Assembly (NCBI GenBank): GCA_039621445.1
Contig: CP154954.1
Location: 49,145,847-49,209,846 of the forward strand
Direction: 5' to 3'
Length of the DNA: 64,000 bases
Source: Euglena gracilis
Lineage: Eukaryota
Below, piece by piece: positions 36,001 through 41,395 of this stretch. The position numbers and the translations under genes are program-made. The notes beneath the pieces are model-generated. The model was not told where the DNA came from, made no database searches, and was given only the letters and a program-made list of their open reading frames with translations. Position 1 is the first letter of the stretch, and each line of letters starts with the position of its first letter.

Positions 36001-39000
36001 AACCCATCAGGCAACGTCACTGCTGAAATGACAATTCTGCATGAGGTGCAAATGAGAACACTCATGCAATTTAGGAGAACTGTACAAATGAAATTGAAAG
36101 CCCAATCTCTTCAAGGACCCAGGGGGGGTTCCTGGGCTAGGGCTGGAAATTTGGGCTGGCTAGAAATTTGGTGGCTAACCCGCCCCCCCCCCCTGGTTGG
36201 ACCTGAGCTGGGCTGGGCTGGGTCGGGCCGAAATCGGACAATTGCCTAAAAAATGACCTGCTAAACCAGATTTGAAAAAAATGAGCATCTGGCAAACCCC
36301 CAAAACACCCCAAAAACACCATTTTTAGGCCATTTTGAACACCTTTTTCAAAAAAATTTGGGCTGGACCCTCCAAAAAGGGGCTGGATAGCAGGGCTAGC
36401 AGCACCCCAGGGGGGGGGGGGGGCTGGGCTGGGCCAAAATCGGGGCTGGCTGCAGCAGCCCCTCCCCGGGGGGGTCTGCAAAAAAACCTGAAGGCATCTA
36501 TGATGGCAACTCAAACTTGCGCAACCAGCAAGAGGCAGATTCCAACAGCCACTGCGCTGGGCAGCACAGGTTCTCGTCAAGAGATTTCAGGAGGGACAGT
36601 GCAAACTGCTGGAACTCTGCAAGGGGGTCTTCCCTCTCCCTGGCAGACTTCCCTTTGGCTCATTATGCGCACTCGCTGCATTGCATGTTGTTGCATGCAG
36701 GTTTGATATGCAATCCTGGAAGAGTCAGCATTACCAGACAAGGTTGTGTGCACCAGTGTGCATTGATATACCACCTCATGTGATTTTTTCCCATCTTGCC
36801 AAGCAGTTCACATTGGGGAAAAAACTCTGCTCTCCCAGCCAGGCTTTTGTTTTGGCGGGGGCCCACCCCACGGGGGGGGGGGGGGGTGCTATGGGCAGGC
36901 AGACCCCCCTCCGACCCCGGCGCCAGGGGCCCGGAAAAGGCCATTTTCAATGAAAATTTTCTCGGTCCCCCCCCCGGACCCCACCCCCCAGGGGGGTGCC
37001 TGCCAGGGGCAGGCACCCCATAGCACCCACCCATATATATATATAAGATATATATATATATATATAGATATATATATAGATATATATATATATATATATA
37101 TATATATATATATATATATATATATATATATATGTATGTATATATATACATATATAGCAACCCACCCACCACCACCCCCCCCCCCCCCCGATGGGCAAGT
37201 ACAAGCCTGCTCCCAGCACACGTATGTCCACAGGAAAGGTGGGCAAAAAACTCGACCTTTACCGGCGGCAACAGGTCAACTTCGGGGATTTATGGTCCAT
37301 TGTCATTCCACGGTCCATTGCCAAACCAACCAAAGACTTTTGAATTGTTGACAGGGCTCCAGCCCGGACCCTTGGCCTGCCCTTGGGCCCAAGGGCAGTC
37401 CGCAAGGAGTCAGTAAGGGGACGTAAGGGTGAGGGTCAGTAAAAAAAAAAATCTTCCTATCCTTTAAGGACCTCCGTGTGTGCATCTCCCCGAGGGGCAC
37501 CATCAGAAATGGAAGCCTTGTCCCCACAGTGGGCCTCTGCAGGGGGCGCTGTCGTAGTTGCGGTGGACAGCACGTTGGTCGGGGTGCATGGGCACGGGAT
37601 GGACAAGCCGGTCAGGTCACATGCGGCAGCGAACTGGAGTGCAAATTGGGGCAGAATTGGTCTCAGTGACTGAGTGCATGATGTGTGTGTGTGTGTGTGC
37701 TCTGTGCATGCGTGTGTCGTGCGCGTGTGTGTGTGTGTGTGTGTGTGTGTGTGTGTGTGTGTGTGTGGGTGTGTGGGTGTGTGTGTGTGTTTTGCGGGTG
37801 TGTGTGGTGTGTGTCGGTGTGTGTGTCTGTGTGTGTGTGTGTGTGCATGCGACAGCTTCTTTACACTGCAGGGGGAGGTGTCAACATATAAAATTCCTCC
37901 TGGCAATAGGTTCCCTTGAAAACTCACCCTTACCCTTGAAAAAATTTTTCCAGCCCAGCCTTCGGCCAGGCTGGACTGACCGACCCCTCCCACCGAGGAG
38001 AGAGGGTCCAGCAGCCCCAATCCACCCACGGCACATGCCCTGGGGGGGGGGGGGTCACGCAGGTGTTAAGTGCTAATACTATGACTCCTGGAAATGAATG
38101 GTCGGACCCAGCAGGGATTGTTTTGGTTGTTTTTGACCTAAATTTGAGTTTGAAACAAAAACATCAGGTGACAAAACACGCTAAAATATCATCCCCTCAG
38201 TGTGCCTCTCCTCCAGATGATATAAATTCCCTCAGTTGGGCACCTGAACCGCGCAGTTGTAGGCCTCTGAAATGTCACAAGTAGCACACAAAGAAGGCTG
38301 CCGGCCAGGGTGGGACTTAGGGCACTCGAGCCCAAATGCCTCCAGCCGAGAGGTCAGACACCTGCCTTGACGACGGTTTGCCTGGGCCACCCAGAAATGC
38401 AACAATGGATGCAACCCATACTGCACAAGGCGGGAGCCACGGGAGCAACGGGCGTGTGGGTGGGAGCCACTTGCCCTGGGCCAAACTTGCACTGGCCAGT
38501 CATGGCCCACACCTCGCAGATCTCTTGGTGCCCCTGGCAGGGGCTATCTTGAGGACCCCGGGAGGCGGGGGGATGGCCAAGGAAAGCTGGAAAGCACGCT
38601 GGAAAAAGGTGCTGGCTGGAAAAAAGATGCTGGCTGGACCCAGCTGGACCCGGCGGTACCCAAAAAAAAGCCTCAAAAAGCCCAAATCCAGCTGGGTTGG
38701 CGAAAACTTGGAGGTGAATATACCCCCCAAAAAACACACAAAATGAAATTTTGGCCATTTCGGCCCCTTTTCACCAAAATTTTCATACATGCCATTTTAA
38801 TTTCAACGTTTTGCCTTGTGTGCACGCAAATCAGCCGACAAACAAAACTTCTTTGTGCGCGCAAATGCGCGCACAAACACACATCAGTCGCGTGACGGCT
38901 GGCGAACGCAATATGTAGTGTGTGATGTCGCTCTGTGTGTCTTTACAGGCGGCTGCAGCACCATGACCAGTTCAGGCACCGCATCAGCACCAGTACTGAA

Positions 39001-41395: not shown

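Follow-up and report, generated by a model that had tools for sequence, protein, structure and literature searches.

Introduction

Nonconventional introns of Euglena gracilis are spliced according to a rule, 5'-N3-CDG...CHG-N5-6 followed by R, that was defined by knock-ins in this species. In the accessible text of that study, the donor spacer is strictly 3 nt, the acceptor spacer is preferably 5 nt, and synthetic introns with only the features of the rule and complementary ends were spliced (Nomura et al. 2025, PMC12501133). Where euglenid nonconventional introns come from, and why they are cut at fixed, asymmetric distances from the CAG/CTG stem, is a question that has been open since the 1990s. 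Here, we analyze a window of E. gracilis DNA, namely 64 kb of contig CP154954.1 (assembly GCA_039621445.1, positions 49,145,847 to 49,209,846 of the forward strand; all positions below are those of the window), in which a 2342-bp element with CAGG...CCTG ends interrupts a gene for a protein with two CCCH zinc fingers. We think it probable that this element, hereafter the focal element, is a non-autonomous DNA transposon that landed in the exon coding the linker between the fingers and that is spliced as a nonconventional intron.

An origin of these introns from elements like MITEs (miniature inverted-repeat transposable elements) was put forward by Milanowski et al. 2014 (PMC3935182), and the accessible part of a 2024 review treats CAG/CTG as inverted repeats and describes duplication-like repeats at the junctions (PMC11282704). 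Junction repeats occur in 84.4% of the introns of Nomura et al., who set the introns that have them aside as "slidable" (PMC12501133). In Euglena agilis, the junctions of a nonconventional intron that gapC gained recently carry direct repeats of eight nucleotides, which Milanowski et al. 2016, in the text available, ascribed to double-strand-break repair (PMC4770533). Both the MITE-origin idea and one 8-nt junction repeat are already published. Our literature search, with subscription papers and supplements outside its reach, found no paper tying Euglena introns to hAT transposons, no statement in print that the 3-nt and 5-nt spacers add up to an 8-bp target duplication, and no paper identifying families of intron elements with 8-bp duplications.

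Results

The focal element has inverted ends and is flanked by a direct repeat (table 1). Its flanks match at 8 of 8 positions only when compared over 8 bp, with 0 to 5 matches at other lengths, and of its 13 terminal positions, 11 are complementary between the two ends and 12 can pair if G-U is counted. When the ends were cofolded as RNA, the energy was -57.8 kcal/mol versus -50.3 ± 3.2 for shuffles, and the structure included the expected pairing and deeper stems. The perfect 8-bp repeat and the 11 of 13 matching terminal bases are as the original prediction had read them from the sequence. Its term MITE is apt for the inverted repeats, the fixed-length duplication, and the dispersed copies, and less so for size, as 2342 bp with internal repeats is long for a MITE (the yardstick being under about 800 bp). 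None of the 10 open reading frames (ORFs) within or overlapping the element matched a Pfam family at the cutoff.

The ends of the focal element also fit the published splicing rule. On the donor side, CAG lies three bases into the intron (GGC-CAG at 40882-40877); on the acceptor side, CTG-CCAGG is followed by a purine, the G at 38532; and the ends pair, with 12 of 13 terminal pairs counting G-U, as the accessible description of the rule asks (PMC12501133). The CAG/CTG register that the original prediction had recognized is present, with the purine of the rule in addition. Since these ends constitute a nonconventional splicing signal with a purine next, the transcript is predicted to lose the element plus 8 nt. 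Excision of these 2350 nt joins ...CSTLQAQG to HQEICEVW... in frame. If the element is removed by itself, with 16 nt, or with 3+4 or 3+6 spacing, a frameshift and an early stop result, and the host frame is therefore intact only when the element plus 8 nt is removed.

The resulting frame encodes a complete small CCCH protein. Guided by P0003 (eukprot EG_transcript_18373; 267 aa with two CCCH zinc fingers), which was retrieved with the exon of a paralog, we predict four exons, with intact start and stop codons, that encode 108 aa and keep each of the 8 zinc ligands in two complete fingers. The product aligns with residues 1-99 of P0003, and a 21-aa linker is common to both. The original prediction had linked finger 1 directly to finger 2; the join does reach finger 2, and the coding sequence of that finger is divided in turn by another intron (38480-38332).

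A sister element in the same window is proven to be removed from mRNA as the element plus 8 nt. The 40-aa translation flanking 2119-3839 retrieved P0005 (eukprot EG_transcript_7220), the first 115 residues of which correspond at 100% to seven minus-strand exons (6786-412) that skip this element and 8 nt. The sequence of the window therefore belongs to E. gracilis or to a very near relative. These first 115 codons occupy 412-6786, and the gene runs past the start of the window. When all junctions compatible with the protein were enumerated, introns 1, 2, and 4 of the gene were GT-AG, and introns 3, 5, and 6 (I3, I5, and I6) each permitted exactly one N3-CAG...CTG-N5 junction with a purine next. 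The two copies of the sister duplication differ at position 6 and the protein has the downstream version, so the junction lies at or before position 5 of the duplication, a bound that is consistent with 3+5 but also with other registers. Between the 8-mer that precedes CAG and the one that follows CTG, 7, 5, and 1 of 8 positions agree in I3, I5, and I6, respectively, for a sum of 13 of 24 (binomial P 0.002). The equality between the 3+5 spacing and an 8-bp duplication, which the original prediction had claimed for the focal element, therefore holds for at least one verified intron, I3, and is not seen in I6.

Across the window, elements with such ends are associated with direct repeats of a set length. 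We scanned the whole 64 kb for CAG..CTG pairs separated by no more than 8 kb in which 7 or more of 10 further bases were complementary, excluding low-complexity repeats. Among 1003 pairs, perfect flanking direct repeats of 3, 4, 5, 6, 7, 8, 9, 10, 11, and 12 bp numbered 3, 3, 0, 0, 2, 5, 0, 0, 0, and 0, respectively, and the naive expectation for 8 bp is 0.015. The five 8-bp cases are 4345-4604, 8358-9256, 26967-27333, 36840-37209, and the focal element; the third and fourth are one insertion, present twice because a 9.6-kb tandem duplication spans it. In none of eight controls with the register shifted by 1 to 8 nt was there a match with complementary ends. In a control with the other 63 triplet pairs, three yielded 4-5 matches, all within microsatellites, and seven yielded one each. 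Among CAGG..CCTG pairs, 5 of 199 have an 8/8 repeat, compared with none in 17 offset controls. Relaxed criteria bring in 2119-3839 (7/8) and 60291-60746 (6/8). All 20 class ends that were scored start with CAGG followed by G or C, and this wider CAGG class occupies at least eight sites in the window. ORF length across the excised elements was the same as background.

Members of the class are found both in and outside exons. The 260-bp element at 4345-4604 sits inside the conventional GT-AG intron I2 of the EG_transcript_7220 gene; therefore, the class also inserts outside exons. A partial copy related to it at ∼11099-11424 has an intact right end (...ACGGCCTG) and a mutated left end, and no duplication could be called there. 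A 190-bp CAGG-ended element at 48668-48857 carries a repeat of 7 bp, and the sequence that flanks it on the left is a repeat of its right end, suggesting two adjacent copies. The original prediction had also seen the end of the focal element recur at ∼61617, and this end is real: its first 22 bases match at 20 of 22, 161 of 251 aligned columns agree, and a common 21-mer matches at 20 of 21. A partner for it was not found within the 64-kb window. End-like matches at 44864 and 52440 did not pair with a duplication and were set aside. A metagenome scan with the 22-nt element end returned two contigs that share one identical, bacterial-looking coding stretch, which we regard as chance matches.

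The interior of the focal element is itself repetitive. It includes an inverted repeat, 39807-39868 / 40389-40447, with arms of ∼62 bp and a perfect 21-nt core that enclose ∼520 bp, around which no target duplication could be called. The palindromic motif TTGCGCAAATGCGC has nine occurrences in the window at no more than two mismatches (38857, 39210, 40674, 53290, and others), compared with 0.65 expected; four of the matches, two of them overlapping, are within the focal element.

The host gene has an old paralog elsewhere in the window. In this paralog (17427-18262) and in P0003 the linker is uninterrupted, a comparison with one old copy (dS 0.86) and one homolog. Over 43 codons, the CCCH gene and the paralog differ with a ratio of nonsynonymous to synonymous substitution (dN/dS) of 0.31 at a dS of 0.86. 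Finger 2 of the paralog is intact in a single exon, and the exon scores 24 bits for Pfam zf-CCCH relative to a cutoff of 20.5. Finger 1 lacks its first Cys and the first intron junction is one base off an AG; judged from these features, the paralog may be a decaying copy.

Large repeats also shape the surrounding DNA. The tandem duplication (19067-28617 / 28618-38405) is 9.6 kb long with copies that are 96-99% identical, and its right boundary, 38405, is inside the putative intron 3 of the CCCH gene. An extra 343 bp in one copy (34079-34422) was considered as a fresh CAG..CTG insertion and rejected; this noisy stretch looks like a local duplication or noise in the assembly. Long microsatellites of the CA/TG type (14800-16200, 37660-37860, and 46800-47100) give rise to spurious long ORFs and false repeat matches.

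Table 1. Positions of the focal element, related elements and introns, and the host gene and its paralog in the 64-kb window
Feature	Positions	Strand	Basis or remark
Non-autonomous element with terminal inverted repeats, CAGGGG...CCCCTG	38538..40879	minus	2342 bp; sequence read and window-wide scans
Target-site duplication, upstream copy, CCAGGGGC, 8 bp	40880..40887	minus	Sequence read
Target-site duplication, downstream copy, CCAGGGGC, 8 bp	38530..38537	minus	Sequence read
5' terminal inverted repeat, CAGGGGTTAACTT	40867..40879	minus	Sequence read; pairs with 3' end in RNA cofold
3' terminal inverted repeat, AAGATAGCCCCTG	38538..38550	minus	Sequence read; RNA cofold
Predicted nonconventional intron, 3+5 register, 2350 nt, GGC-CAG...CTG-CCAGG then exon base G	38533..40882	minus	Sequence and PMC12501133 rule
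Second, diverged end of the focal element's family	61617..61880	plus	End match, alignment, shared 21-mer
Sister element, CAGGGC...GCCCTG, 1721 bp, duplication 7/8	2119..3839	minus	Window scan and transcript protein
Nonconventional intron I3, transcript-verified, 1729 nt (sister element + 8 nt)	2114..3842	minus	
Nonconventional intron I5, transcript-verified, 218 nt, N3-CAG...CTG-N5 then A; flanking 8-mers 5/8	849..1066	minus	
Nonconventional intron I6, transcript-verified, 339 nt, N3-CAG...CTG-N5 then G; flanking 8-mers 1/8	472..810	minus	
260-bp CAGG-ended element, perfect 8-bp duplication ATCCTCAC	4345..4604	.	Within conventional intron I2
899-bp CAGG-ended element, perfect 8-bp duplication GATACATC	8358..9256	.	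Window scans
370-bp CAGG-ended element, duplication CTCCCAGC; same insertion as 26967-27333	36840..37209	.	Window scans
456-bp CAGG-ended candidate element, duplication 6/8	60291..60746	.	CAGG..CCTG pair scan
CCCH gene, exon 1, ATG and first half of finger 1	41289..41395	minus	Aligns to start of P0003
CCCH gene, putative conventional GT-AG intron 1	40954..41288	minus	Join gives C-x7-C-x4-C-x3-H spacing as in P0003
CCCH gene, exon 2, end of finger 1 and linker	40883..40953	minus	
CCCH gene, exon 3, linker end and first half of finger 2	38481..38532	minus	
CCCH gene, putative intron 3, slides over TTTGG	38332..38480	minus	Exon 4 homology to paralog and P0003
CCCH gene, exon 4, second half of finger 2 (LECPKSHP...) and stop codon	38235..38331	minus	
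Old paralog of the CCCH gene, without the insertion at the corresponding site	17427..18262	minus	Sequence comparison

Discussion

The window combines CAGG-ended elements with 8-bp duplications in and outside exons, one proven removal of an element plus 8 nt, and a fresh-looking insertion in a coding exon. Within the window, there is good support for the class being transposons and for duplication length matching the splicing register. From the fit of its ends to the rule, we infer that the focal copy, too, is spliced. In the mechanism we propose, the transposon would have integrated through an 8-bp staggered cut in the exon that codes the linker between the two CCCH fingers. Its paired CAG/CTG ends would serve as the nonconventional splicing signal, with cuts 3 nt before the CAG and 5 nt after the CTG. 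The transcript would lose the element and 8 nt, the equivalent of one duplication copy, and the frame that preceded the insertion would be restored with no scar. The original prediction went further and read the 3+5 register as the footprint of the staggered cut. Such a cut in DNA explains the sum of 8 and does not explain how it is divided; the 3-versus-5 split must belong to the RNA-cutting machinery.

Which transposase moved these elements is a separate issue. Elements of the hAT type, such as Ac/Ds and hobo, combine 8-bp duplications with short inverted repeats starting CAG; their inverted repeats start YARNG and their target consensus is nTnnnnAn. The 8-bp target duplication of the focal element is as in this pattern, both of its ends are CAGGG and fit YARNG, and 12 of the 20 ends scored in the class carry C as their fifth base instead. 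The target consensus fits only one of five independent 8-bp duplications (excluding the 6/8 candidate at 60291), and no transposase domain was detected in 20 scanned ORFs (10 in or overlapping the focal element, 8 long ones elsewhere, and 2 stretches of the CCCH and paralog exons). The label "hAT-like" in the original prediction, which the duplication and the CAG start favor and the ORF scan and target consensus do not, is a lead, not a result. A class that is real and not hAT, mobilized either by an undescribed family or by another transposase that generates 8-bp duplications, for which Merlin is an example, is a serious contender, though we would not count on it. The same two negative observations speak for it, as does the 7-bp length of 2 of the 7 perfect repeats, while the combination of 8-bp duplications and short inverted repeats that start with CAG is typical of hAT and speaks against it. 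Two Merlin families with 8-bp duplications are known in E. gracilis, but in the accessible description Merlin inverted repeats end in 5'-GG (PMC8101967), whereas each of the 20 class ends begins with CAGG, with the repeat directly next to the C.

Several observations weigh against our reading of the focal element as a spliced insertion. Not all introns and elements follow the 8-bp register: I6 is verified and matches at 1 of 8 positions, two class elements carry 7-bp repeats, and intron 3 of the CCCH gene is outside the 3+5 CAG/CTG register. No autonomous partner is present among the ORFs scanned in the window. A second CAGGGGC, 7 nt upstream of the first and inside the duplication, could pair with the 3' end and would shift the frame. 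The frame is kept upon excision, as the original prediction stated, and this loses its value as evidence of splicing because the frame would be kept automatically for any insertion with a target duplication on its two sides. Likewise, the perfect duplication suggests that the insertion is recent, so the intact downstream frame says little. Finally, searches for a transcript-derived protein returned none with exon 2 and six matches with exon 1, the best at 39% identity, and by the same searching two other genes or relatives did turn up in the E. gracilis transcriptome set.

The last three of these points also favor the explanation that the transposon merely disrupts the gene and is no intron, either because it is left unspliced or because this gene copy is silent or dying. 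The existence of the paralog and of the expressed homolog P0003 adds to this, as loss of the interrupted copy could be tolerated. We nonetheless consider mere disruption unlikely. The focal element has every feature of the experimentally defined rule, as far as the rule is set out in accessible text (PMC12501133), and splicing is shown for a sister intron of 1729 nt from the same class. In addition, the interrupted gene retains its start and stop codons and every one of the 8 zinc ligands, whereas the paralog has lost the first Cys of finger 1.

Splicing of the focal copy could also be accepted while its transposon origin is replaced by intron gain through repair of a staggered double-strand break, with no transposase. 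This explanation, offered in the available text of Milanowski et al. 2016 for an intron with 8-nt junction repeats (PMC4770533), is very improbable here, given that repeat length is fixed at 8 (five cases) or 7 (two cases) and is never 5, 6, or 9-12, that CAGG ends are common to all copies, and that sequence-related copies are present at several sites, some outside any exon. Chance coincidence of a repeat with inverted ends has a negligible probability: CCAGGGGC does look similar to the end of the element, and the window has many G/C-rich runs, but the excess of perfect 8-mers over the naive expectation is large and, single matches apart, the offset and triplet controls are empty outside microsatellites.

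If transposon insertions of this kind are generally spliced, the consequences extend beyond one gene. The cut distances of 3 and 5 nt sum to the duplication length, and removal from RNA would exactly reverse insertion into DNA, such that these transposons could colonize coding exons at almost no cost. The "slidable" junction repeats of most Euglena introns would be decaying target duplications. The reach of the idea would be wide, as nonconventional introns are about 70% of all introns in E. agilis. It also makes the MITE-origin idea quantitative and testable genome-wide, since the duplication length is predicted to equal the 5' spacer plus the 3' spacer, and the end sequences of the class are now defined for a search for the autonomous transposon. 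We tentatively suggest, as one possible outcome, that Euglena nonconventional splicing is matched to a single transposon class and that most such introns descend from CAGG-ended elements with 8-bp duplications.

Among known systems, the focal element can be compared first with euglenid nonconventional introns. It has in common with them CAG at +4..+6 with CTG at -8..-6, spacers of 3 and 5 nt, a purine at the start of the downstream exon, and base-paired ends, in a group of introns that vary in length and frequently have junction repeats. It differs in that the candidate intron doubles as an intact element that has inverted ends and a perfect 8-bp duplication, in a class that has relatives outside exons in the same 64 kb. 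Published accounts of these introns, in their accessible parts, offer the hypothesis of a MITE origin with neither a duplication length nor an element family.

Among DNA transposons, maize Ds is a non-autonomous hAT element that, reportedly in work by Giroux and colleagues from 1994, can act as an intron. Ds is similar in its 8-bp duplication and short inverted repeats starting CAG, and different in that it is removed via cryptic spliceosomal sites, whereas removal of the focal element is predicted to be exact. For hAT elements as a whole, the differences are a target consensus that the Euglena class does not match and the lack of a transposase in the ORFs scanned. E. gracilis Merlin elements share the organism and the 8-bp duplication with the class and differ in their ends, GG as described in the accessible text versus CAGG (PMC8101967).

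The introners of Micromonas and Aureococcus (Huff et al. 2016, as described in the accessible part of PMC11282704) are alike in that a transposon landed in an exon is spliced together with one duplication copy. Introners use the spliceosome and a splice site co-opted from a 3-bp duplication (PMC11282704), whereas the Euglena class uses paired CAG/CTG ends, the nonconventional pathway, and an 8-bp duplication. An introner family is made up of many introns that are nearly identical in sequence and lie in unrelated genes. CAGG introns in the window comprise one that is verified with a duplication (I3), two more that are verified, and the focal candidate, and these belong to different sequence subfamilies. 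Relative to these systems, the finding is best described as transposon-derived introns that are removed by a Euglena-specific pathway.

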